From the NCBI RefSeq assembly GCF_003334385.1, contig NZ_QOWN01000062.1: a stretch of 17,976 bases of DNA; one strand, 5' to 3'. Each line of letters starts with the position of its first letter. Position 1 is the stretch's first letter. This DNA is from Escherichia coli. Lineage in GTDB: Bacteria > Pseudomonadota > Gammaproteobacteria > Enterobacterales > Enterobacteriaceae. This document shows, in pieces, positions 3,369 through 17,860 of this stretch. Made by a program: the position numbers and the translations under genes. A model generated the notes under the pieces. The model was not told the origin of the DNA and searched no databases. It saw only the letters and a list, made by a program, of their open reading frames with translations.

Positions 3369-3873
3369 ACAGGCTCGTGAGGCTCTGGATGCCTGGATAT
3401 GTCGACCAGGAATGACACAGGAGCAGGCGACGATATTAATCACTGAAGCATTCTGGGCTTTGAAAGAGCGCCCGAACATCGATGTTCAGCGTGTCACATA
3501 TGAAGGTGGCGCGATTGATCAGCGAGCGCTTGGCGTTAATCGAGTGAAGATATTTGAACGCTGGAAGGCTATCGACACCAGGGATAAGCGTGAAAAGTTC
3601 ACGGCGCTAGTGCCTGCAATTATGGAGGCTATCCGGATTAATGATTTCAGGTTGTATCGTGAAATTACTGACGGAAAAAGCATCACGTGCATGATCGCCG
3701 GGTTAAACAAAGAATATGGCGATGTGGTGGAGTCCGGACTGCTTTTTGCTGATCCTGCCGTAGTGGATCGTGAAACTGACGAACTTATAGAAAAAGCAAT
3801 TGCTTTCAAACTTGCGTATCGACAGCAATACCAACAAAAAGCTGGATGGAATTATGAGCCTTCTTTTTGCTGA
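3352..3873 (+). CDS. Hypothetical 173-aa protein at the CII position (possibly YdaT-like); function not recognised
   Basis: Track ORF; ATG overlaps the dicC-like 3' end by 17 nt, suggesting translational coupling. Family assignment is a guess from gene position. Confidence 0.55.
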   Translation: MKITPEQAREALDAWICRPGMTQEQATILITEAFWALKERPNIDVQRVTYEGGAIDQRALGVNRVKIFERWKAIDTRDKREKFTALVPAIMEAIRINDFRLYREITDGKSITCMIAGLNKEYGDVVESGLLFADPAVVDRETDELIEKAIAFKLAYRQQYQQKAGWNYEPSFC

Positions 3874-4819
3874 ACGCCCACTGGTTATAAACACGCAGCT
3901 GGCAATGAAAATTGGCTTAAACGAAGCCATTGTTTTGCAACAACTGCACTACTGGTTGAGAGATACCAACTCCGGCATGGAATGTGATGGTGTTCGCTGG
4001 ATTTATAACACAACGGAACAATGGCTGGAACAGTTCCCATTCTGGTCAGAGTCAACGTTAAAGCGCGCGTTTGCAAGTCTGAAAACGCTGGGGCTTTTGC
4101 GTTGTGAAAAGCTCAATAAATCAAAGCGCGATATGACCAATTTCTACACGATCAACTATGGGTGCGAGCTTTTAGATGGTGGCAAATTGAGCGAATCCAT
4201 CGGTTCAAAATGCGCCGCTCCATCAGGTCAAAATGACACGATGGAAGAGGTCAAAATGAAACGCTCCATTGGTTCAAAACGACCCAATGTCATCGGGTCA
4301 AAATGGCCTGATGATCTTACAGAGAATACAACAGAGATTACTACAGAGAATAAAAACACTTTTCGTCCGGAAGCTTCGCAACCGGACCCGCAGACGACTG
4401 AACAGGATTTTTTAACCCGGAACTCCGACGCGGTTGTGTTTAGTGCGAAAAAACGCCAGTGGGGTAGCAGGGAGGATTTGGCGTGTGCGCAGTGGATCTG
4501 GGGGCGGATCGTGGGTCTCTACGAACAGGCAGCCAGTGATGATGGCGAGATCATGCGACCAAAAGAGCCTAACTGGACTGCCTGGGCCAATGACGTGCGC
4601 ACAATGCGGATGCTGGATGGCAGAAGCCACAGACAAATTTGCGAAATGTTTGGTCGGGTTCAGCGAGATCCATTCTGGGTAAAAAACATCATGAGCCCGT
4701 CAAAGCTCCGCGAAAAATGGGACGAACTGGTCATCCGCCTGGGACGTTCACCTGTACAGCGTTGTGTTAATCATATTTCTGAACCGGATACAGAAATTCC
4801 GCCTGGTTTCAGAGGATAA
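3854..4819 (+). CDS. Phage replication initiator / replisome-organizer protein (lambda O-like role), 321 aa from the ATG at 3854
   Basis: Track ORF 3800..4819; preferred start at 3854 (MSLLFAERPLVINTQLAMKIGLNEAIVLQQLHYWL, an HTH-like N-terminus). The gene contains five iteron repeats at 4196-4305, as ori-lambda lies inside O. Confidence 0.7.
   Translation: MSLLFAERPLVINTQLAMKIGLNEAIVLQQLHYWLRDTNSGMECDGVRWIYNTTEQWLEQFPFWSESTLKRAFASLKTLGLLRCEKLNKSKRDMTNFYTINYGCELLDGGKLSESIGSKCAAPSGQNDTMEEVKMKRSIGSKRPNVIGSKWPDDLTENTTEITTENKNTFRPEASQPDPQTTEQDFLTRNSDAVVFSAKKRQWGSREDLACAQWIWGRIVGLYEQAASDDGEIMRPKEPNWTAWANDVRTMRMLDGRSHRQICEMFGRVQRDPFWVKNIMSPSKLREKWDELVIRLGRSPVQRCVNHISEPDTEIPPGFRG
4196..4305 (+). repeat. 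Five direct iterons (core GGT(T)CAAAA(T/C)G) at 22-25 bp spacing inside the replication gene; candidate replication origin
   Basis: Core starts at 4202, 4226, 4249, 4271 and 4296, with flanks TCCATCGGTTCAAAATG, TCCATCAGGTCAAAATG, GAGGTCAAAATG, TCCATTGGTTCAAAACG and GTCATCGGGTCAAAATG. Followed at 4320-4356 by three ACAGAGA(A/T)TA repeats in an A-rich stretch. Confidence 0.6.
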
Positions 4820-4859
4820 GTGTTGATTTCAGGTCATGAGGTAATTTTAAGGGGGACTT

Positions 4860-5282
4860 GTGGCAAAAGTTTTTACACAAGAAGAGCGGGAAAAAATTAA
4901 ATGGCAGGTGGTGGAACTCGTGCGCCAGAGCGGCCGTGAGACGTTACGGCAACTGGAAGCTAAAACAGGTGCGACTAGATATCTGATGAGCGTTCTTGCC
5001 AGAGAGCTGGTAGCCAGTGGCGATGTATACAACTCCGGCTACGGGTTATTCCCCTCTGAACAGGCGCGTAAGGACTGGCAAAACGCCCGCAAAAAACTCT
5101 CGAGGGCAAAGGTGAAGAAACCTGCTTTGGTTGATCCGGACCTTATCTGGTCATCACCTGACGGAGAAATACGTCGCTACGACAGTCGCCTAAACATAAT
5201 CTGTCGCGAGTGCCGGAAGAGCGAAGTTATGCAGCGCATACTGGCTTTCTATCAGGGTAATTTTCAGGACGTGGCGCAGTGA
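4860..5282 (+). CDS. Hypothetical 140-aa protein (GTG start), downstream of the replication initiator
   Basis: Track ORF preceded by AAGGGGGA Shine-Dalgarno. Its stop overlaps the GTG start of the following methyltransferase ORF (GTGA). No recognisable motif. Confidence 0.5.
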   Translation: MAKVFTQEEREKIKWQVVELVRQSGRETLRQLEAKTGATRYLMSVLARELVASGDVYNSGYGLFPSEQARKDWQNARKKLSRAKVKKPALVDPDLIWSSPDGEIRRYDSRLNIICRECRKSEVMQRILAFYQGNFQDVAQ

Positions 5283-5725
5283 GTGCACCGGCAACCATTC
5301 TTGATATGTGCTGTGGCAGCCGCATGTTCTGGTTCGATAAGTCTGACGAACGGGCGATATTCAGCGATATCAGAAAAGAAGGATACACATTACGCAATGG
5401 GAGACGCTTGATTATCAGCCCTGACATTATCGCAGATTTTCGTGCATTATCATTTGCAGACGCATCTTTTTCGATGGTTGTATTAGACCCTCCGCATCTT
5501 GAGAGTGTTGGTGATAACGCCTGGATGGGAAAGAAATATGGACGGCTGAATAAAGATGCCTGGCGTGATGATTCGCGACAGAGATTTAAAGAAGCCTTTC
5601 GGGTGTTGAGGCCGCACGGCGTTCTGATTTTTTAATGGAATGAAACGCAAATACCGGTAAGCCAGATTCTGGCACTGACAGACAGAAAACCTGTTATCTG
5701 TCAACGAACAGGGAAAAAACGATAA
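5279..5725 (+). pseudogene. DNA amino-methyltransferase (motif I DMCCGS, motif IV DPPH) interrupted by an in-frame TAA at 5633-5635
   Basis: Track ORF 5279..5635 carries VVLDPPHLE, the D-P-P-[YFWH] catalytic motif of N6A/N4C methyltransferases, and a SAM-binding-like ILDMCCGS. The same frame continues after the TAA for 29 codons (WNETQIPVSQILALTDRKPVICQRTGKKR) to a TAA at 5723-5725. Confidence 0.5.
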
Positions 5726-5897
5726 AACCCACTGGATTATTTTTATGAAAGAGGCATCCAGTGAGTAGATTCGTAAGGCTACAGATACGTATATCTGAAT
5801 AATTAAATTCAGTTCTGTAAATAAAATTTAATCCTTAACCGGATGGATTTCTGCACCCTCAGAACATCAGGAGGCAGCCCGAAAGGGCGGTAGTGAA

Positions 5898-6080
5898 ATG
5901 CGAAAGTTCAAAATTATTATTGAAACGGGAATAGCTGGTGGAGATTTTGAGGATGTATTCGAAGTGGACGATGACGCAACACCTGAGGAAATTCATGACG
6001 GAGCATAAGAAATTTTCTTTAACTACTGCAATTACTCATACCACGAAATAAAAGACGATGAGGAAGAACAAAGTGGCTGA
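5898..6080 (+). pseudogene. Small acidic ORF (36 codons) with an in-frame TAA at 6006-6008 and a 23-codon in-frame continuation
   Basis: MRKFKIIIETGIAGGDFEDVFEVDDDATPEEIHDGA, stop, then EIFFNYCNYSYHEIKDDEEEQSG in the same frame. Manual translation. Confidence 0.3.
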
Positions 6081-6249
6081 TTTTTGTTCAGCTAAATATA
6101 ACATCAGTTTTGAAGAGCGGGATGAACTATTAATGGACTATGGTGAGTTACGCGGTGGAAGTGCTGCTGATGTCGAATCCTAGCGTGATGACTATGAAGC
6201 GGGAAAAACTCCGGTCGAAGCATATTGTGATGAGTGGGGCGATGAATGA
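6058..6249 (+). pseudogene. Small ORF (41 codons) with an in-frame TAG at 6181-6183 and a 21-codon acidic in-frame continuation
   Basis: MRKNKVADFCSAKYNISFEERDELLMDYGELRGGSAADVES, stop, then RDDYEAGKTPVEAYCDEWGDE. The terminal TGA overlaps the ATG of the next ORF (ATGA). Confidence 0.35.
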
Positions 6250-6533
6250 GCGAGATTAATTATCAGGAAGGGCATGAAACGGCGGGGCAAGCAAAACCAG
6301 TGGCATGGCGATATCGCTACGTGAAAAAAGGCGTTACGGACTTTCAGGGGAAGTAGTGGTCTGGTGACTGGAAATATGTACCGAAAAAAGAGGATTGTAA
6401 CGACAGGCCGAACTATCAAATTCAGGCCTTATTCACTGCCTCACCAGTCCCAGTTACATCAGAAGAACTGGTTAAAGCTGTGCACTTTTATGAACAACTA
6501 AAACGCGAAAATCCACCAACATCCGGCAACTAG
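6246..6533 (+). pseudogene. Small ORF (36 codons) with an in-frame TAG at 6354-6356 and a 58-codon in-frame continuation
   Basis: MSEINYQEGHETAGQAKPVAWRYRYVKKGVTDFQGK, stop, then WSGDWKYVPKKEDCNDRPNYQIQALFTASPVPVTSEELVKAVHFYEQLKRENPPTSGN in the same frame. Confidence 0.4.
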
Positions 6534-6787
6534 ATTAATGGATTAACTATGTCGGTTAAACGACCAGCCAACTGAAAAAGCGGAAACCTGATTACAGGTT
6601 GCCAGATAAGGCAATGAGCTACCTGGCGCGGAACGGACTGATAAGTATGGGGAATGTTTTACGATGAACCTTTAGACTAAAGAGTTTGTAACGCTATGTA
6701 AGTGATTTTTTCTGGTTTAGATATTTATATGTCCGGCCAAATTGAGGTGTGTTTAAATGTAATTGCACATTGATTGTAGGAGGAATA

Positions 6788-6967
6788 ATGAAAAACGCAT
6801 TGCAGTTTTTGTTTGTTGCGTTCTGGTTGTTCGCATCATGTATGCCCATCATCTTCACAGCAAGGTATATGGAAAAAGTTGATGTTTTGATATTAATATT
6901 TGGATATATAAATGCCCTTTTTTTAGGGGTGTTCATGGCGGTCATGTGCATTGAATACTGGCGGTAA
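6788..6967 (+). CDS. Small hydrophobic protein, 59 aa, two predicted transmembrane segments
   Basis: ATG at 6788 with AGGAGG at 6778-6783. MKNALQFLFVAFWLFASCMPIIFTARYMEKVDVLILIFGYINALFLGVFMAVMCIEYWR. No antisense gene explains it. Confidence 0.45.
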   Translation: MKNALQFLFVAFWLFASCMPIIFTARYMEKVDVLILIFGYINALFLGVFMAVMCIEYWR

Positions 6968-7301
6968 ATACAGCGAACTCCATTGGTTTAGTTGGATATT
7001 TACTGTGCTGGACAAAAACGGTTTGCGGGGAAATCTTAGTTAAGTAGAATGACTGCGGGTGCTTGAGGCTATCTGCCTCGGGCATGGACACCAACGGCAG
7101 ATAGAGAAAAGCCCCAGTTAACATTACGCGTCCTGCAAGACGCTTAACATTAATCTGAGGCCAATTTCATGCTAGACACATGTAGGTTAGCCTCTTACGT
7201 GCCGAAAGGCACGGAGAAGCAGGCTATTGTTAACACCAAGCTGTAATGTCCCCTTTGAACCATTCTAAAATGTCCCCAGACAATTCTCTGGGGGATTTTT
7301 C

Positions 7302-8615
7302 ATGATCAAAGAGACTGTTACGATGAGTCATAAGGAACTCCACCGACTTCAGATTATTCAGGAACAAGCTGCGGCACGCATTGGCATTTCTATTCGGCAG
7401 GTTAAACGTCTGGTGCAACGGTATAGAAATGAAGGGCCTTCTGGTCTGGTTTCCCACCGACGTGGAAAGCGTCCTAATAATTCCTTTTCTACTGAATTCA
7501 GAGCAACAGTAATTTCACTCCTCAAAGGCCGTTACGCTGATTTTGGACCTACGTTTGCGTGCGAAAAATTGCGCGAGATACACGGTTTATCTTTATCCGT
7601 TGAAACTCTCAGAAAGTGGATGATAGAAGAGGGGTTATGGCGTGAACGCCGTCGTAAAATTGCCCGTATATATCAACGCCGCATGCGACGACCATCTTAC
7701 GGTGAACTGATCCAGATTGATGGCTCACCTCATGACTGGTTTGAAAATCGAGGCCCCAGATGTACACTGATCGTTTTCATTGATGATGCCACCAGTGCGT
7801 TGATGGCGTTGCGTTTTGTGCCTGCTGAAACAACCCGGGCTTACATGGAAACCCTCCGGGGTTACCTTAATGATCATGGCGTACCGCTCGCTCTCTACTC
7901 TGATAGACACAGTATATTCAGGGTAAATAACCCAGAGCGGGAAGGTGAGCTGACCCAGTTCACTCGTGCGATAAAGACACTGGGCATCGAGCCAATCCAT
8001 GCCAACAGCCCGCAGGCAAAAGGGCGGGTAGAGCGCGCCAATCAGACACTACAGGACAGGCTGGTCAAAGAAATGCGGCTTCAGAATATCAGTGATATTG
8101 AAACAGCAAATGCATGGTTGCCGACCTTTATTGAAGCCTATAACAACCGGTTCGCTACGTCGCCTCGTACTACTGATAATGCTCATCTTGATGTGCACCA
8201 TTCTGAAGAGGAACTGGGTTATATCTTCAGCCTACAGGCGAAGCGCGTTCTGTCTAAAAATCTCACTTTCCAGTACAAAAGCAGTGCGTTTCAGGTACGC
8301 AGTGAGGGCCGGGGATATCGACTTAGGCATTCGGTTGTTACTGTATGCGAGAACTTTGACGGTGAAATTAACGTTCTGTATGACGGGAAAGCGCTGGGCT
8401 GGGAAAAGTATGTTGATGGCCCGGAGCCTATACCACTGGATGATGAAAAGAGTGTCCATGAACGAGTGGATAATGCCCGTATTGATTTACGCTCAAAATA
8501 CTATGTTAAACCTAAAGCTGACCATCCCTGGCTTACGCGCCGAACGCAAAGTCATCAGCAAGTTAAGCCCCCGAAGTTACCTAAAAAGAAGCCTGATCCC
8601 GATAAAAAAGATTGA
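7302..8615 (+). CDS. IS-element DDE transposase (integrase-core/rve type with N-terminal HTH), 437 aa; family uncertain (IS481-like or ISNCY-like)
   Basis: Track ORF with HTH-like N-terminus (IGISIRQVKRLVQRY) and candidate DDE residues in IQIDGSPHDW, IVFIDDATSA and GRVERANQTLQD. Ends of the element could not be defined. Confidence 0.8.
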   Translation: MIKETVTMSHKELHRLQIIQEQAAARIGISIRQVKRLVQRYRNEGPSGLVSHRRGKRPNNSFSTEFRATVISLLKGRYADFGPTFACEKLREIHGLSLSVETLRKWMIEEGLWRERRRKIARIYQRRMRRPSYGELIQIDGSPHDWFENRGPRCTLIVFIDDATSALMALRFVPAETTRAYMETLRGYLNDHGVPLALYSDRHSIFRVNNPEREGELTQFTRAIKTLGIEPIHANSPQAKGRVERANQTLQDRLVKEMRLQNISDIETANAWLPTFIEAYNNRFATSPRTTDNAHLDVHHSEEELGYIFSLQAKRVLSKNLTFQYKSSAFQVRSEGRGYRLRHSVVTVCENFDGEINVLYDGKALGWEKYVDGPEPIPLDDEKSVHERVDNARIDLRSKYYVKPKADHPWLTRRTQSHQQVKPPKLPKKKPDPDKKD

Positions 8616-10514: not shown

Positions 10515-10670
10515 ATGAAGCAGCAAAAGGCGATGTTAATCGCCCTGATCGTCATCTGTTTAACCGTCATAGTGACGGCACTGGTAACGAGGAAAGACCT
10601 CTGCGAGGTACGAATCCGAACCGGCCAGACGGAGGTCGCTGTCTTCACAGCTTACGAACCTGAGGAGTAA
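10515..10670 (+). CDS. hokD: HokD (RelF) Hok-family membrane toxin, 51 aa
   Basis: Manual translation MKQQKAMLIALIVICLTVIVTALVTRKDLCEVRIRTGQTEVAVFTAYEPEE; GGAGAAG Shine-Dalgarno. Under 60 aa, so absent from the ORF track. Confidence 0.9.
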   Translation: MKQQKAMLIALIVICLTVIVTALVTRKDLCEVRIRTGQTEVAVFTAYEPEE

Positions 10671-10886: not shown

Positions 10887-11192
10887 ATGATGAACATCGA
10901 AGAACTGCGTAAAATTTTTTGTGAAGATGGCCTCTATGCTGTGTGCGTTGAAAATGGAAATCTTGTTAGTCATTACCGCATTATGTGTTTGCGAAAGAAT
11001 GGGGCTGCGTTAATTAATTTTGTGGATGCTCGGGTCACGGACGGATTTATCTTGCGCGAAGGTGAGTTTGTCACTTCATTACAGGCATTGAAAGAGATCG
11101 GAATAAAAGCTGGCTTTTCTGCTTTTCTGGTAACAAAGTGCTGGCAGGAAGAAGCATACGCGGAAGCGCAATTGAGGAAGGTGACGAGATAA
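10887..11192 (+). CDS. rem: Rem-like small protein
   Basis: Track ORF MMNIEELRKIFCEDGLYAVCVENGNLVSHYRIMCLRKNGAALINFVDARVTDGFILREGEF... resembles Rem of Qin. The C-terminus may differ in length from K-12. Confidence 0.65.
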   Translation: MMNIEELRKIFCEDGLYAVCVENGNLVSHYRIMCLRKNGAALINFVDARVTDGFILREGEFVTSLQALKEIGIKAGFSAFLVTKCWQEEAYAEAQLRKVTR

Positions 11193-11299
11193 ATGATTTT
11201 TGCTGAAGATGGCGACATGATGTTTGCATTTTTCAAAAAATATGGATAAAATTTTTTCAACGATGGGCTTTGTATACCCGACGTTAAGAAAAAGTAGAA

Positions 11300-11324
11300 A
11301 ACCCGCTGATGAGCGGGTTTTGTG
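11300..11324 (+). terminator. Intrinsic terminator downstream of rem
   Basis: CCCGC-TGATGA-GCGGG hairpin followed by TTTTGTG. Confidence 0.5.
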
Positions 11325-11613
11325 CTTTAAATGGGGCAATGGTAATGTTGAATCTCATCCCGGGACTCATGTCTGTTAACTTATTATTTAGCTGGTGACT
11401 TGGTTATTTGCCTGATGTTTAAAATGTTTTCTTCCAGTACAATGTCCCTAAACACAATGAGTCTGCTTATTATATTATTAGCAGAGCTATTACGGCCAAA
11501 GTACAGCATAAGCTTTTAAAGCCAATCAACCAGTCATCAAGACAGACGGGGTTATTCATAAAAACTCTCCATGTGTGATCCGATGGGGCCTGAAATTAAA
11601 GCTTTAATATAGC

Positions 11614-11826
11614 TCATGAAAGGTAAACATTGGCAGCTGAAGGGCCACGCAGACCATTTATCCGGCAAAATTCCACGCGTAATCCGGTGGTAATTTCTTC
11701 TGCATCGCGGAGATTGAGCGCTGAAACATGAAGCTGGACATCGATACGACCATCGGATGGGGTGATAAGACCCTTGCCGCTTTTGCCGTCAAAGGTTTTG
11801 ACAATTCCTGTCATTTTACGGGACAA
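11614..11826 (-). CDS. cspF: CspF/CspH-like cold-shock-domain protein (70 aa, apparent TTG start)
   Basis: Track [73 protein letters not shown]. Divergent from cspB as in Qin. Confidence 0.75.
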
Positions 11827-12126
11827 AAAAATTCCTTAATACTGATAACTTGGCGCACTATACACACGTTCCTGAAGAAAGCTATAGTTTTTTGATGGGG
11901 TTGAAGATGGCTGGATGTCTAAAATAAACATTGCTTCATATGTTCAACTATGCGTTAATGATTGCGTCGGTTTGAAGAACAGACGATATACGAAGTAGTT
12001 TACTAAAGCAGTTCTCATTTCAGGTGTTATTCACTTATTCCTTCTTTGAGTCTCTCCAATTAAGTACGAAGTCGTTTCTGTTATGCAAACCATTTATGCC
12101 GAAAGGCTCAAGTTAAGGAATGTAGA

Positions 12127-12342
12127 ATGTCAAATAAAATGACTGGTTTAGTAAAATGGTTTAACGCTGATAAAGGTTTCGGCTTTATTTCTCCTGTTGA
12201 TGGTAGTAAAGATGTGTTTGTGCATTTTTCTGCGATTCAGAATGATAATTATCGAACCTTATTTGAAGGTCAAAAGGTTACCTTCTCTATAGAGAGTGGT
12301 GCTAAAGGTCCTGCAGCAGCAAATGTCATCATTACTGATTAA
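12127..12342 (+). CDS. cspB: Cold-shock protein CspB (71 aa)
   Basis: [71 protein letters not shown]. Long 5' UTR containing a TGCCGAAAGGC box, as in the csp family. Confidence 0.9.
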
Positions 12343-12624
12343 AATTCATCGCTCGTCTGTATACGATAACGAAGAAGGCTGATGCCTGAGTAGAGATACG
12401 GACAGAGTAGTGAATATTGGATCTCTTTAATAAAAAGTAAGGAGGTCCAATACATGAAACAATGGCCAGCATATTTGGCAAAATCTTAATCAGGAAAAGT
12501 ATGCTAACCATTGTGGTGAAGTGCAGGTTTGCTGCATGAATAGTTTTACAGCAGAAGCTAACTGCTGGCATGGCAAAACAAAGTGCGTAAGTGGATGACT
12601 CCCACAAAAAGCACCACAATCTCA

Positions 12625-12648
12625 AACCCGCTCAGGCGGGTTTTTTAT
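12625..12648 (+). terminator. Intrinsic terminator downstream of cspB
   Basis: CCCGC-TCAG-GCGGG hairpin followed by TTTTTTATT. Confidence 0.55.
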
Positions 12649-12705
12649 TATCTGCTTTAAATATATTATTAAAATATAAAAAATACTTGTTACTAATAAA
12701 ATCAA

Positions 12706-12927
12706 TCAGGCTACAGCTTTAAGATTTGTCTGGAATACTTTGTTGCAATGAGGGCAGATCAAAAGGGCACCTTTTTGTACTCTTGAAAAACTGTGTTCTG
12801 ACTCTTGGGTGCAGTTTGGGCAGGAACATTTAACGAGATAATTACGGCGTGATTTTGAGTTTTTACGTTCTGACATAGGCTTTTCCTGTATAAATGGCCG
12901 TATACAGTACACTAAATATGAAAACAT
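12706..12927 (-). CDS. Small zinc-ribbon protein (CxxC ... CxxC), possibly YdfK/YnaE-like
   Basis: Track ORF containing KCSCPNCTQESEHSFSRVQKGALLICPHCNKVF. The true start may be the internal MSERKNSKS. Name is tentative. Confidence 0.5.
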   Translation of the reverse strand: MFSYLVYCIRPFIQEKPMSERKNSKSRRNYLVKCSCPNCTQESEHSFSRVQKGALLICPHCNKVFQTNLKAVA

Positions 12928-13095
12928 TTCTCGTATTATTATTTTATATATGACTTTCTTTCAAAATAATTACCCACATTTTTAATGTGTATGTTTTTTT
13001 AGCGCCGTTGAGAACAACGTGTGCTGTCAAAACTACCCCGTAGACTCCGATCTTTTCAAACATATTGCACCATCCGTGTACATCGGGGTGAGGAT

Positions 13096-13311
13096 ATGAA
13101 ATCAATGGATAAGTTAACAACAGGTGTTGCCTATGGCACATCGGCGGGTAATGCTGGTTTCTGGGCATTGCAGTTACTCGATAAAGTAACTCCGTCACAG
13201 TGGGCTGCAATCGGTGTGCTGGGTAGCCTGGTTTTTGGCCTGCTGACGTATCTGACAAATCTTTATTTCAAGATTAAAGAAGACAGGCGTAAGGCTGCGA
13301 GAGGAGAGTAA
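13096..13311 (+). CDS. essQ: Phage-21-type pinholin S (71 aa) with a dual-start motif (MKSM)
   Basis: ATG at 13096 and a second ATG at 13105; GGGGTGAGGA Shine-Dalgarno. [71 protein letters not shown] resembles S21. Confidence 0.85.
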
Positions 13312-13315
13312 TCCA

Positions 13316-13623
13316 ATGACTCAAGACTATGAACTGGTTGTGAAAGGAGTCCGTAATTTTGAGAATAAAGTTACGGTAACTGTAGCCTTACAGGACAAAG
13401 AACGCTTTGACGGTGAAATTTTTGACCTGGATGTCGCCATGGACCGTGTTGAAGGAGCTGCGCTGGAGTTTTATGAGGCAGCAGCCAGAAGGAGCGTCCG
13501 GCAAGTCTTCCTGGAAGTAGCAGAAAAATTGTCAGAAAAAGTTGAGTCTTATCTGCAGCATCAGTACTCCTTTAAGATTGAAAATCCTGCCAATAAGCAC
13601 GAGCGTCCTCATCATAAATATCT

Positions 13624-13627
<4 letters not shown>
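13316..13627 (+). CDS. ydfR: YdfR-like protein (103 aa) between holin and endolysin
   Basis: Track ORF MTQDYELVVKGVRNFENKVTVTVALQDKERFDGEIFDLDVAMD... Same position and length as ydfR in Qin as I recall. Confidence 0.6.
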
Positions 13628-14651
<1,024 letters not shown>

Positions 14652-15013
14652 GGTAATATTAAATCGGAACATTTACATCGCGGAATGTAAAATTTAAATA
14701 AAAAGGACTCTTCCATGAGCCAAAATTCCTGAAATCTTAAGGGTAAGATAAAAGGTCTTAATCAGAATGACACGTTTTATTAATAAATAAAGCTATTCTT
14801 TCATTGCTGTGTTTTTCTTTACAAAAGTAATCCTTGCTATGGGTGGTTAATCATGCGTTAATGGTGTTCTGGTTTGTTACAAATTTATCTGAAGCAGTCA
14901 TTGTTATAATTTTATTATTTGTACCTCTTGAGATTTCCTTGTTGGTTTTTCTCTCTGATATTTTTTTTCGGACCATTCTGCCCAAGGGCTAATTTCTTCA
15001 AAAGGTAATAATT

Positions 15014-15226
15014 ATGTCTAACAAAATGACTGGTTTAGTGAAATGGTTTAACCCTGAAAAAGGTTTTGGTTTCATCACGCCGAAAGATGGCAGCAAAGAT
15101 GTGTTTGTCCATTTCTCAGCAATTCAGAGCAACGATTTCAAAACATTAACTGAGAATCAGGAAGTTGAATTTGGTATTGAGAACGGACCTAAAGGTCCTG
15201 CCGCTGTTCATGTAGTGGCGCTTTGA
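15014..15226 (+). CDS. cspI: Cold-shock protein CspI (70 aa)
   Basis: [70 protein letters not shown]. Confidence 0.88.
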
Positions 15227-15314
15227 GGTAGACAATATTACAAACCATATTCACTTTAGATGCCCGTGTTGTCATGGTTCCCAGTATAGAACATCATCTT
15301 TTGATGTTTCTGAC

Positions 15315-15425
15315 ATGAATCCTTTCGGGGCAAAATGTATCTTTTGTAAATCAATGATGATTACATTTGATAATATTTCACAATACTTAAATGCCAGCCG
15401 TCTGTCGTTGGATTTAAAAAAGTGA
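15315..15425 (+). CDS. YnfN-like small zinc-ribbon ORF; only the ATG-initiated C-terminal part is annotated
   Basis: The frame is open from 15216 and encodes ...RCPCCHGSQYRTSSFDVSDMNPFGAKCIFCKSMMITFDNISQYLNASRLSLDLKK, but the CPCC half of the zinc ribbon has no in-frame ATG/GTG/TTG upstream. An out-of-frame ATG at 15259 suggests a frameshift. Confidence 0.3.
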   Translation: MNPFGAKCIFCKSMMITFDNISQYLNASRLSLDLKK

Positions 15426-15432
15426 AAATGAA

Positions 15433-15453
15433 GGCTCCTTCGGGAGCTTTTTT
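15433..15453 (+). terminator. Intrinsic terminator after the cspI / ynfN-like region
   Basis: GGCTCC-TTCG-GGAGC hairpin followed by TTTTTTG. Confidence 0.6.
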
Positions 15454-15497
15454 GCTTGGTGTCTATTCGATGGATACTCACATACTACGGTAACATC

Positions 15498-15728
15498 ATG
15501 AAAAAAATCATAGTTTTTTTTAACTCTGAACCAGCAGTGGTAGTGCCAGCGATGACTGGAGTTAACACCATCATGCGTGAATATCCAAATGGCGAAAAAA
15601 CACACCTTACTGTAATGGCCGCAGGGTTTCCATCTCTGACCGGAGATCATAAAGTCATTTATGTAGCCGCGGATCGACATGTTACTTCAGAAGAAATTCT
15701 GGAAGCAGCAATAAGGCTCTTGAGTTGA
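15498..15728 (+). CDS. Hypothetical 76-aa protein
   Basis: Internal ATG of track ORF 15456..15728: MKKIIVFFNSEPAVVVPAMTGVNTIMREYPNGEKTHLTVMAAGFPSLTGDHKVIYVAADRHVTSEEILEAAIRLLS. Starts just after a terminator. I recall no gene at this position in K-12 Qin. Confidence 0.45.
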   Translation: MKKIIVFFNSEPAVVVPAMTGVNTIMREYPNGEKTHLTVMAAGFPSLTGDHKVIYVAADRHVTSEEILEAAIRLLS

Positions 15729-15896
15729 TTTGATGCTATTGCATTGATAATTCAGGAAAATTCTCTTTGTCTGTTTGTGTAAAATTTAGACTATCGTATG
15801 TTGATTATTGCGATGTTTCATCTTATCTTTTACACGTTTGCACCATATAATCGACTTACTGTGTAACTGGAAAGTCATAACAGACTAAAAGAGGAA

Positions 15897-16073
15897 ATGA
15901 TGAATATTGAAAACTTAAAAACAAAAGCAGAAGCAGATATTTCTGAATATATAACAAAAAAAATTATTGAACTTAAGAAAAAGACCGGGAAAGAAGTTAC
16001 CAGTATTCAGTTTACCGCACGGGAAAAAATGACGGGTCTTGAAAGCTATGATGTCAAGATTAATTTAATCTGA
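15897..16073 (+). CDS. gnsB: GnsB-like protein (58 aa)
   Basis: Manual translation MMNIENLKTKAEADISEYITKKIIELKKKTGKEVTSIQFTAREKMTGLESYDVKINLI; AGAGGA Shine-Dalgarno. Resembles GnsA/GnsB. Under 60 aa, so absent from the ORF track. Confidence 0.8.
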   Translation: MMNIENLKTKAEADISEYITKKIIELKKKTGKEVTSIQFTAREKMTGLESYDVKINLI

Positions 16074-16224
16074 TGTATTCAATAATAAAATTTATCCATA
16101 AACCTCGTTTTTACGGGGTTTTGTTATATTTGAATGGTTCCGAATATCTAAATCACAATTGTTGATGGTTTTTATTAAACCAATGCAGTCCGGCCCAGGA
16201 GTGAGAGAAGCCGGACGTTATGGT

Positions 16225-16635
16225 TTAGCGTGGTAAGATCTGTGTAGTTTTCTGGATGCTTTCAGTAAATAGTAATGAATTATCAAAGGTATAGTAATAT
16301 CTTTTTTGTTCGTGGATATTTGTAACCCACCGAAAAACTCCTGCTTTAGCAAGGTTTCTTCTGTATTCCTGAAATGTGATCTCTCTGGATTTCAGCTTAT
16401 TAGAGGTCGTTTCTATAAGATGCCTATCCTTTGAAAATTTGACAGACACAATGTTTTTTAGGCCCTTTAATAACACTGTATTATCATTTTTTAATACAAT
16501 ATGAACATTCTCTGTGGCTAAATAGTAAATGTAATGTGAGACATTGTGACGTTTTAGCTCAGAATAAAACCATTGATAGTTTAAATCGTTTCGAACTTTA
16601 TCAAATATTTGTTTAAAAATGACTACCTGATCCAT
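16225..16635 (-). CDS. ydfO: YdfO-like protein (136 aa from the ATG at 16635)
   Basis: Track ORF 16225..16650; internal Met with GGAAGG Shine-Dalgarno gives [49 protein letters not shown]..., recognised as YdfO. Confidence 0.8.
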
Positions 16636-16692
16636 AGATAAACCTTCCATGTGATATGAGGGGGCGTAGTCTGCACGATTATCTAAATTGCT

Positions 16693-16926
16693 TCAATCTG
16701 GTCTGACCTGTTTTCTGAGCAATTCAGTAATGTCACTCTTTTCTTTGTTTGCTTCAGAAGAAACTCTTTTTTCTGAGCACAGTCTCCGGCGGCAGGCTTC
16801 AATGACCCAGGCTGAGAAATTCCCGGACCCTTTTTGCTCAAGAGCGATGTTAATTTGTTCAATCATTTGGTTAGGAAAGCGGATGTTGCGGGTTGTTGTT
16901 CTGCGGGTTTTGTTCTTCGTTGACAT
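16693..16926 (-). CDS. Ribbon-helix-helix (Arc/CopG-like) DNA-binding protein, 77 aa (possibly ynfO)
   Basis: Track ORF with a basic N-terminus and an RHH-like segment TRNIRFPNQMIEQINIALEQKGSGNFSAWVIEACRRRL. Lies next to cos and nohA. Confidence 0.6.
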   Translation of the reverse strand: MSTKNKTRRTTTRNIRFPNQMIEQINIALEQKGSGNFSAWVIEACRRRLCSEKRVSSEANKEKSDITELLRKQVRPD

Positions 16927-17089
16927 GAGGTTGCCCCGTATTCAGTGTCGCTGATTTGTATTGTCTGAAGTTGTTTTTACGTTAAGTTGATGCAGATCAA
17001 TTAATACGATACCTGCGTCATAATTGATTATTTGACGTGGTTTGATGGCGTAGATGCACGTTGTGACATATAGATGATAATTATTATCA

Positions 17090-17314
17090 TTTTGCGGGTC
17101 CTTTCCGGCGATCCGACAGGTTACGGGGCGGCGACCTCGCGGGTTTTCGCTATTTATGAAAATTTTCCGGTTTAAGGCGTTTCCGTTCTTCTTTGCCGTA
17201 ACTTAATGTTTTTATTTAAAACACCCTCTGAAAAGAAAGGAAACGACAGGTGCTGAAAACGAGCTTTTTGGCCTCTGTCGTTTCCTTTCTCTGTTTTTGT
17301 CCGTGGAATGAACA
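17090..17314 (+). promoter_or_regulatory. Lambda-type cos site: cosQ, cosN (12-nt cohesive end GGGCGGCGACCT at 17126-17137) and cosB up to the Nu1 start
   Basis: ...CGGGTCCTTTCCGGCGATCCGACAGGTTACG | GGGCGGCGACCT | CGCGGGTTTTCGCTATTTATGAAAATTTTCC... matches the right and left ends of the phage lambda genome as I remember them, then runs into the Nu1 start. Confidence 0.8.
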
Positions 17315-17860
17315 ATGGAAGTCAACAAAAAGCAGCTGGCTGACATTTTCGGCGCGACTATCCGTACCATTCAGAACTGGCAGGAGCAGGGAATGCCCGT
17401 TCTGCGGGGTGGTGGCAAGGGTAATGAAGTGCTTTATGACTCTGCCGCCGCCATAAAATGGTATGCCGAAAGGGATGCTGAAATTGAGAACGAAAAGCTG
17501 CGCCGGGAAGTTGAAGAACTGCGGCAGGCCAGCGAGACAGATCTCCAGCCAGGGACTATTGAGTACGAACGCCATCGACTTACGCGTGCGCAGGCCGACG
17601 CACAGGAGCTGAAAAATGCCAGAGACTCCGCTGAAGTGGTGGAAACCGCATTCTGTACTTTCGTGCTGTCGCGGATCGCAGGTGAAATTGCCAGTATTCT
17701 CGACGGGATCCCCCTGTCGGTGCAGCGGCGTTTTCCGGAACTGGAAAACCGACATGTTGATTTCCTGAAACGGGATATCATCAAAGCCATGAACAAAGCA
17801 GCCGCGCTGGATGAACTGATACCGGGGTTGCTGAGTGAATATATCGAACAGTCAGGTTAA
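17315..17860 (+). CDS. nohA: Terminase small subunit Nu1 (NohA), 181 aa
   Basis: MEVNKKQLADIFGATIRTIQNWQEQGMPVLRGGGKGNEVLYDSAAAIKWYAERDAEIENEKLRREVEEL... is near-identical to lambda Nu1. Confidence 0.92.
   Translation: MEVNKKQLADIFGATIRTIQNWQEQGMPVLRGGGKGNEVLYDSAAAIKWYAERDAEIENEKLRREVEELRQASETDLQPGTIEYERHRLTRAQADAQELKNARDSAEVVETAFCTFVLSRIAGEIASILDGIPLSVQRRFPELENRHVDFLKRDIIKAMNKAAALDELIPGLLSEYIEQSG

Follow-up and report, generated by a model that had tools for sequence, protein, structure and literature searches.

We analysed a stretch of 17,976 nt from the Escherichia coli contig NZ_QOWN01000062.1 (hereafter the window), following up a cluster of cold-shock genes and the small zinc-ribbon gene ynfU at positions 11614-12927. 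The window represents an E. coli cryptic lambdoid prophage of the Qin type, and the genes of the followed-up region are already annotated in K-12 as cspF, cspB and ynfU, so that the locus itself is not a discovery. A first-pass annotation, based on a listing of open reading frames (ORFs) and on inspection of the sequence, had described here a divergent pair of cspF-like and cspB genes, a small CxxC...CxxC protein convergent to the latter, and three CspA-family paralogues within 4 kb. All three elements of this description proved correct (Table 1): the convergent gene is ynfU, and cspF, cspB and cspI all lie within 3.6 kb.

The annotated gene order in both K-12 MG1655 and SCU-104 is ynfS, cspF, cspB, ynfU, essQ/essD, ydfR, rrrQ, rzpQ, cspI, ynfQ, ynfR, ynfN and gnsB, and the K-12 annotation places all genes from ynfS to gnsB inside the feature "cryptic prophage Qin." Gene set, order and orientation in K-12 Qin all match the window, with 99.6% identity over 11127-17843. 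In a megablast search against 5,426 complete E. coli genomes, SCU-104 was 100% identical over 11400-13100, and at least 80% of this segment was present in 1,618 genomes. Thus the genes are already known, and the lead offered here is a modest and apparently unreported one, namely the linkage of ynfU with csp genes.

Table 1. Features of the cspF-cspB-ynfU region and of the cspI side, in coordinates of the window.
Feature	Position	Strand	Description	Annotated in
ynfS	11470..11559	-	29-aa small protein gene downstream of cspF	K-12; SCU-104
cspF	11614..11826	-	CspF/CspH-type cold-shock-domain protein, 70 aa, TTG start	K-12 (b1558); SCU-104
cspB 5' UTR with cold-box stem-loop	11966..12126	+	part of cspA-type thermoregulator mRNA (Rfam RF01766)	
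cspB	12127..12342	+	CspA-type cold-shock protein, 71 aa	K-12 (b1557); SCU-104
terminator-like hairpin and T-run	12624..12649	+	between convergent cspB and ynfU; AAACCCGCTCAGGCGGGTTT then TTTATTATCT	
ynfU	12706..12876	-	56-aa Cys4 zinc ribbon, putative zinc-binding protein YnfU	K-12 (b4776); SCU-104
ynfU conserved leader/promoter-proximal element (putative)	12877..12925	-	GTGTAnnGT ... CAGGAR-N7-ATG; from upstream regions of 62 homologues	
cspI 5' UTR	14868..15013	+	cspA-type thermoregulator (Rfam RF01766)	
cspI	15014..15226	+	CspA-type cold-shock protein, 70 aa	K-12 (b1552); SCU-104
ynfQ	15237..15425	+	62-aa YmcF-like Cys4 protein, ATT start	K-12 (b4724); SCU-104, as ymcF (PGAP naming)
ynfR	15428..15493	+	21-aa cold-induced small protein	K-12; SCU-104
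ynfN	15573..15728	+	51 aa in K-12, no cysteine; MREYPNGEKTHL... inside ORF 15456-15728	K-12; SCU-104
gnsB	15900..16073	+		K-12; SCU-104

To describe the neighbourhood of ynfU across species, one GTDB genome per species was scanned with a YnfU alignment as the query, which yielded 62 ynfU loci. Nearly all of these are in genomes titled as Enterobacteriaceae genera (Escherichia, Citrobacter, Klebsiella, Raoultella, Enterobacter, Kosakonia, Leclercia, Lelliottia, Kluyvera, Atlantibacter, Phytobacter, Yokenella, and others), with a few metagenome-assembled genomes labelled otherwise. In 45 of the 62 loci, a cold-shock-domain (CSD) gene was detected no more than 1 kb from ynfU (tblastn and a hidden Markov model (HMM) scan of six-frame ORFs), and all of the CSD genes counted in this way are within ~500 bp. 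In terms of density, there were 67 csp ORFs in the 121 kb lying within 1 kb of ynfU versus 4 in 463 kb of outer flanks, a 64-fold difference. When loci that have either outer flank in common were joined, the 62 loci formed 29 context groups; csp adjoins ynfU in 22 of them, and csp, ynfQ or ynfN does so in 24. Relative to a null of ~0.5% per locus, derived from the nine csp genes in the 4.64 Mb of the K-12 genome, the binomial P on context groups is ~1e-45, a value that ignores shared ancestry and overstates independence. The first-pass annotation had seen in the pairing of csp and zinc-ribbon genes the hint of a functional partnership, and would have taken a lack of statistical co-occurrence across genomes as its refutation; co-occurrence is in fact strong by locus, by context and by density, and the idea withstands that check.

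The adjacency takes many forms. At least ten different arrangements occur among the loci, including ynfU> <cspA-type cspF-type>; <cspA-type ynfU> <cspA-type; cspA-type> ynfU>; <ynfN <ynfQ <cspA-type ynfU>; <ynfQ ynfU>; and, in Klebsiella and Raoultella, ynfU> cspF-type>. In Yokenella the order is cspF-type> ynfU>, with a gap of 33 nt and no terminator between the two genes. Of 14 sampled loci, 13 have the Rfam thermoregulator at the cspA-type gene next to ynfU, and YnfN and YnfQ neighbour ynfU in 21 and 15 of the 62 loci, respectively. Overall, ynfU retains csp, ynfQ or ynfN neighbours across many contexts and gene orders, and these are mainly chromosomal.

The YnfU family is tiny. Only 44 proteins at E<=1e-3 came out of an exhaustive HMM search that covered 1.84 billion representatives, and the named members are all from Enterobacterales (Mangrovibacter, Cronobacter, Jejubacter, Salmonella/Citrobacter, and Erwinia). 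Among seven distant relatives that were sampled, the one in Mangrovibacter is divergent from a CSD gene that is followed by a YmcF-like gene, the one in Cronobacter lies 1.9 kb from a CSD gene followed by a YmcF-like gene, and one has a ynfN-like neighbour.

The three cold-shock genes of the window fall into two types. cspF matches NCBIfam NF012007 (CspF) at 160.4 bits (cut-off 111) and cspB matches the CspA subfamily model NF007679 at 144.3 bits (cut-off 130); cspI stays just under the curated cut-offs (137.8 bits vs 144 for the CspG model and 127.5 vs 130 for the CspA model). Membership of the CspA family (cold-shock domain, PF00313) is therefore given by curated models for cspF and cspB, and by annotation for cspI. 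The Rfam model RF01766 (gathering score 78) matches cspB over both 5' UTR and coding region (11966-12358, 158.8 bits) and also matches at cspI (14868-15253, 112.8 bits), and the cold-box hairpin of the 5' end is part of both matches. For cspF, a permissive search of the upstream sequence for such a leader gave only a partial match (14.1 bits, E=0.76). The alignment of all three csp 5' UTRs that the first-pass annotation had proposed as a search for cold-box elements is hence answered positively for cspB and cspI and negatively for cspF: the former are CspA-type genes whose mRNAs carry a cspA-type thermosensing leader, and the latter is a CspF/H-type paralogue without one. Within the CspA family of E. 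coli, cspB and cspI are cold-inducible whereas cspF and cspH are not known to be, and the leader pattern agrees with this.

The hairpin between cspB and ynfU has a stem of 8 pairs, 5 of them GC, and is a pattern match only. Between the cspB stop codon and this hairpin we also observed, on the plus strand at 12438-12490, a perfect Shine-Dalgarno sequence (TAAGGAGGT) followed after 7 nt by an 11-codon ORF encoding MKQWPAYLAKS. The same ORF is present in phage PhiR42_1 with one substitution, and it had no counterpart among the other genera checked.

Translated from 12876, YnfU reads MSERKNSKSRRNYLVKCSCPNCTQESEHSFSRVQKGALLICPHCNKVFQTNLKAVA. A 73-aa form starting from the ATG at 12927 was considered and rejected, as both conservation and the position of the Shine-Dalgarno sequence favour the start at 12876. 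Most of 25 aligned YnfU homologues begin at MS(E/G/Q)RK, and the N-terminal extensions of the longer ones are unlike one another; the 12876 ATG has a CAGGAR Shine-Dalgarno sequence ahead of it, and farther upstream the sequence diverges among homologues. The protein belongs to the YnfU family by NCBIfam NF038384 (79.4 bits vs a cut-off of 36, residues 1-51), by Pfam PF23499 (107.1 bits, residues 1-49) and by its two CPxC knuckles, and it differs from K-12 YnfU by one substitution. Substitutions in ynfU are concentrated at third codon positions, and ynfU is an independently conserved coding gene.

A block of ~45 nt (GTGTAnnGT ... CC-T ... ATCAGGAR-N7-ATG) accompanies ynfU in otherwise unrelated contexts (62 homologues, loci L006-L067), with AAGCAA or GAGCTA standing ahead of it at about -60. 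A sigma-70-like site lies upstream at 12964-12935 on the minus strand, as a pattern match only. The block is probably ynfU's own promoter and leader. Upstream of ynfU we also noted, by eye only, a palindrome resembling a LexA box (CTGTATA-N8-TATACAG). It was rejected, given that its spacing is unlike CTGT-N8-ACAG and that it is not conserved in other genera.

YnfU was found by ribosome profiling of initiation complexes combined with tagging (Weaver et al., 10.1101/511675), and its level was the highest among the newly identified small proteins of that study. The authors noted a "pair of zinc knuckles" and gave no function. Among the papers searched, those mentioning YnfU report no function, with later ones repeating Weaver et al., and the search of these papers found neither cold regulation of ynfU nor a link between ynfU and csp genes. 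YnfU is a y-ome protein that is well expressed and lacks a known function, and the linkage directs experiments on it to cold shift, RNA chaperoning and translation.

On the other side of the lysis genes, the first-pass annotation held that the same pairing recurs at cspI with a ynfN-like zinc-ribbon ORF. A Cys4 neighbour is indeed present there; however, it is ynfQ and not ynfN, and it is co-directional with cspI rather than convergent. YnfN has no cysteine and was rejected as a zinc ribbon. ynfQ starts 10 nt past the cspI stop codon, which is overlapped by a GAGGT Shine-Dalgarno sequence, and a reading restricted to ATG starts shows just a 36-aa tail of it. From this layout cspI-ynfQ looks operon-like and translationally coupled. 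YnfQ (ITNHIHFRCPCCHGSQYRTSSFDVSDMNPFGAKCIFCKS...) is YmcF-like (Pfam PF23641, 111.8 bits), and the layout of a csp gene followed by a YmcF-like gene is also found at cspG-ymcF, in Mangrovibacter and in Cronobacter. YnfU and YnfQ/YmcF appear to be unrelated zinc-ribbon families, not detectably related in comparisons of the two: BLASTP gave no alignment of YnfU with YnfQ, and hhalign a probability of 4.2% over 8 columns.

Published data bear on several of these genes. In transcriptomes, ymcF and ynfQ follow cspG and cspI (PMC11728337, PMC13058169), the abundance of tagged YnfR rises strongly after cold shock (PMC6001520), and YnfS is among the small proteins detected in the latter study. The Qin region also resembles the paralogous K-12 chromosomal cluster cspH-cspG-ymcF-ymcE-gnsA, which likewise has a divergent pair of CspF/H-type and CspA-type genes and, directly after csp, a YmcF-like Cys4 gene (65% identity between YmcF and YnfQ), with a small gene and a member of gnsA/B next in line.

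As a separate observation, ynfQ and its paralogue ymcF both have an ATT start immediately downstream of the csp gene, whose stop codon is overlapped by the Shine-Dalgarno sequence (window 15224-15239; locus L153, 3185). The codon aligned to the ynfQ start in 15 relatives is ATT in 7, ATC in 2, ATG in 3 and ACT in 3. We speculate that, in a cold-shock operon, the conservation of a start codon other than AUG may link translation to the levels of initiation factors.

Is the association a property of phages or of chromosomes? Further Qin-like phage genes occur within 5 kb of ynfU in only ~8 of the 62 loci, and those sampled from Klebsiella and Enterobacter are flanked by genes of metabolism and transport. 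Neither YnfU nor YnfQ matched a PHROG family, and YnfU is encoded in only 8 of 50,697 phage records. Among these, phage PhiR42_1 repeats the Qin layout, with ynfU between Q and the holin gene as in K-12, and Klebsiella phage ST13-OXA48phi12.4 has ynfU beside a holin gene and no csp nearby. Considered as a lambdoid prophage moron, ynfU has this position in K-12 and PhiR42_1; its promoter and terminator are pattern matches only, and most homologous islets lie outside prophages. A scan of IMG/VR gave 80 loci with cspB beside ynfU in every case; all are Qin-like prophages at least 88% identical, and as near-identical copies they were left out of the independent evidence. The suggestion in the first-pass annotation that the prophage is a vehicle for cold-shock morons consequently holds for lambdoid prophages of E. 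coli and Citrobacter and fails for the family overall.

Ten species have, 270-460 bp upstream of ynfU, a divergent cspA-type gene at the position that the lysis cassette occupies in Qin. We infer that the islet predates its residence in prophages or, alternatively, that the chromosomal copies are prophage remnants stripped of their lysis genes. In Citrobacter sp. On2M (locus L008, 3500-5700), gnsB, ynfN, ynfQ, a cspI-type gene, ynfU, truncated remnants of cspB and cspF, and ynfS are contiguous with no lysis cassette, and this contiguity suggests a single islet made up of the two "halves" of Qin. A different placement was seen in Escherichia phage PHB10 (locus L005, 3600-5150), where ynfN-ynfU-cspB-cspF stands between umuDC on one side and an SOS-response peptidase and integrase on the other; the module is here at a prophage end, unlike the late-region position in Qin.

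At the protein level, C19, P20, C22, C41, P42 and C44 of YnfU are invariant among 42 homologues, as are S26-E-H-S29, R32 and K35-G36. Some species have N, S or G in place of C17, the first cysteine of the C-x-C-P-x-C stretch, and thus the zinc ligands are probably provided only by the two CPxC knuckles. Lys and Arg abound among the 16 residues of the N-terminus. An initial AF2 model fell short (pLDDT 58.7); a deeper alignment of 42 sequences gave a model at pLDDT 73.5 with four beta-strands in a zinc-ribbon arrangement.

With generic small zinc ribbons YnfU shares the CxxC-x18-CxxC spacing, S-x-H-S after the first knuckle and the four-strand ribbon. Its nearest fold likenesses, none of them significant, are archaeal ribosome-bound small zinc-ribbon proteins (the Methanosarcina acetivorans ribosome protein 9o17_AZ at a TM of 0.46-0.50 over 35 residues), the zinc finger of thioredoxin-2, and Kti11. 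Profile comparisons gave marginal matches to the N-terminal ribbon of PhnA/YjdM (E=3e-4), to the DNL-type finger of Tim15/Hep1 (PDB Tim15, E=0.012; Pfam PF05180, E=0.1) and to ribosomal eL42/L44e (E=0.028). These likenesses describe the appearance of the fold and not family membership. Assignment to the DNL-type zinc fingers (PF05180) was rejected on account of the marginal profile matches and the missing D(N/H)L motif, NKVFQTNL being what follows CPHC. Among the anti-phage defence models of PADLOC, none matched YnfU or YnfQ, and CspB and CspF gave only generic CSD matches. The model and the likenesses support no more than a generic basic zinc ribbon, plausibly one that binds nucleic acid or the ribosome.

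Taken together, the reading we favour, at a probability of roughly 60%, is that the region is half of a conserved Enterobacteriaceae cold-shock islet residing in a Qin-type prophage, and that YnfU takes part in the low-temperature physiology of the Csp proteins. The ancestral order of such an islet would roughly have been gnsB < ynfN < (ynfR) < ynfQ < cspI-type < | ynfU > | cspB-type < cspF-type > ynfS, and in Qin-type prophages the lysis cassette essQ-ydfR-rrrQ-rzpQ sits between cspI and ynfU. YnfU and YmcF/YnfQ would act in the same low-temperature RNA or translation physiology as the Csp RNA chaperones, and the most likely role of YnfU would be that of a small nucleic-acid- or ribosome-binding zinc-ribbon accessory rather than a phage function. 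As judged from gene neighbourhood, a functional partnership of YnfU with Csp proteins is plausible, and the linkage is not obligatory. That YnfU (PF23499) and YmcF/YnfQ (PF23641) are dedicated accessories of the Csp RNA chaperones at low temperature, the whole being a cold-adaptation module captured by lambdoid prophages such as Qin, is a tentative proposal that we would rather bet against; as such accessory factors, they might modulate the interactions of Csp with RNA or of the ribosome in the cold. The islet reading would recast the "cold-shock morons" of Qin as a pre-existing chromosomal islet carried by the prophage, not a phage invention.

Several observations weigh against a role of YnfU in Csp physiology. 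In 17 of the 62 loci ynfU has no adjacent csp, and among loci of one common context, ynfU stands by itself in Kosakonia species where a relative has ynfU, cspB and cspF. Five of the seven sampled distant relatives likewise have no csp nearby. As a single bacterial order supplies all the loci, there were fewer events than the counts suggest. The chromosomal cspH-cspG-ymcF-ymcE-gnsA cluster, which differs from the Qin region also by the lack of a second cspA-type gene and of a lysis cassette, does without ynfU. No cspA-like leader or cold box was found upstream of ynfU, and it was in stationary-phase cells at normal temperature that the protein was detected (10.1101/511675). Finally, a Foldseek search of the YnfU model against the PDB gave no significant match (best E=0.23), and with fold and sequence likenesses that are non-significant the molecular role proposed for YnfU is a guess.

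The principal rival is that csp, ynfU, ynfQ, ynfN and gnsB are unrelated accessory genes that share hypervariable islets or moron slots and move as blocks, so that adjacency would reflect shared mobility and short distance rather than shared function. This is possible, at odds that we put well short of even. It would account for the patchiness of the islet, with ynfU alone in 11 loci and csp clusters without ynfU in K-12, for the variability of the contexts (29 flank groups in 62 species), and for the restriction of the YnfU family to Enterobacterales. Klebsiella oxytoca adds a further point both for co-residence and against partnership, as a terminator-like hairpin and a promoter-like site part ynfU from the cspF-type gene there, and the two are thus probably separate transcripts. 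However, block transfer alone would keep order as well as proximity, whereas the adjacency outlasts rearrangements (convergent, divergent and co-directional, on either side of ynfU) and recurs with distant YnfU relatives at ~50% identity.

It is much less probable that YnfU is an accessory of the phage late region or of lysis, with the holin adjacency being the meaningful one and the csp genes unrelated morons. ynfU does abut a holin gene in Qin, in ST13-OXA48phi12.4 and in three further loci (L006, L022 and L061), and one distant relative lies beside Rz and lysozyme genes in a Salmonella or Citrobacter prophage; yet ynfU is transcribed antisense to the late operon, Qin-like phage genes are missing within 5 kb in ~54 of the 62 loci, flanks include metabolic genes, and the rarity of YnfU among phage records and its absence from PHROG speak against a phage function. 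Hardly credible is the notion that the ynfU ORF is incidental and the functional unit is an antisense or convergent transcript modulating the 3' end of cspB: despite the convergent layout with a shared terminator-like hairpin and a cspB 3' region of ~280 nt, the protein is strongly conserved (invariant Cys and SEHS motifs, third-position-biased substitutions), the gene is kept in orientations that cannot be antisense to any csp, and the tagged protein has been detected (10.1101/511675).

The Qin copy in the window differs from that of K-12 in two further respects. A 2108-bp deletion takes out ydfU and most of ydfT, which encodes the Q antiterminator, and so leaves this copy without a late antiterminator. 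Its junction is at 11126|11127 (window 10887-11192) relative to both K-12 and SCU-104, and it joins rem to the last ~66 nt of ydfT, creating a chimeric ORF of 101 aa in place of the 83-aa Rem. The window also carries ~4.8 kb of additional early-region DNA (3632-8430) that is absent from K-12 Qin and was found in 327 complete E. coli genomes. The annotation of matching records shows DUF977 and remnants of an ISNCY transposase there, and in the three best-matching records an IS66-family element splits the region.

Within this additional DNA, a strong match to the Rfam sok antitoxin (104 bits) was detected at 7057-7228 on the plus strand, 3.3 kb from hokD (10515-10670), and may represent a second hok/sok-type locus. 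As expected for Qin, the gene of the small RNA DicF is present at 1420-1471 on the minus strand (76.7 bits).

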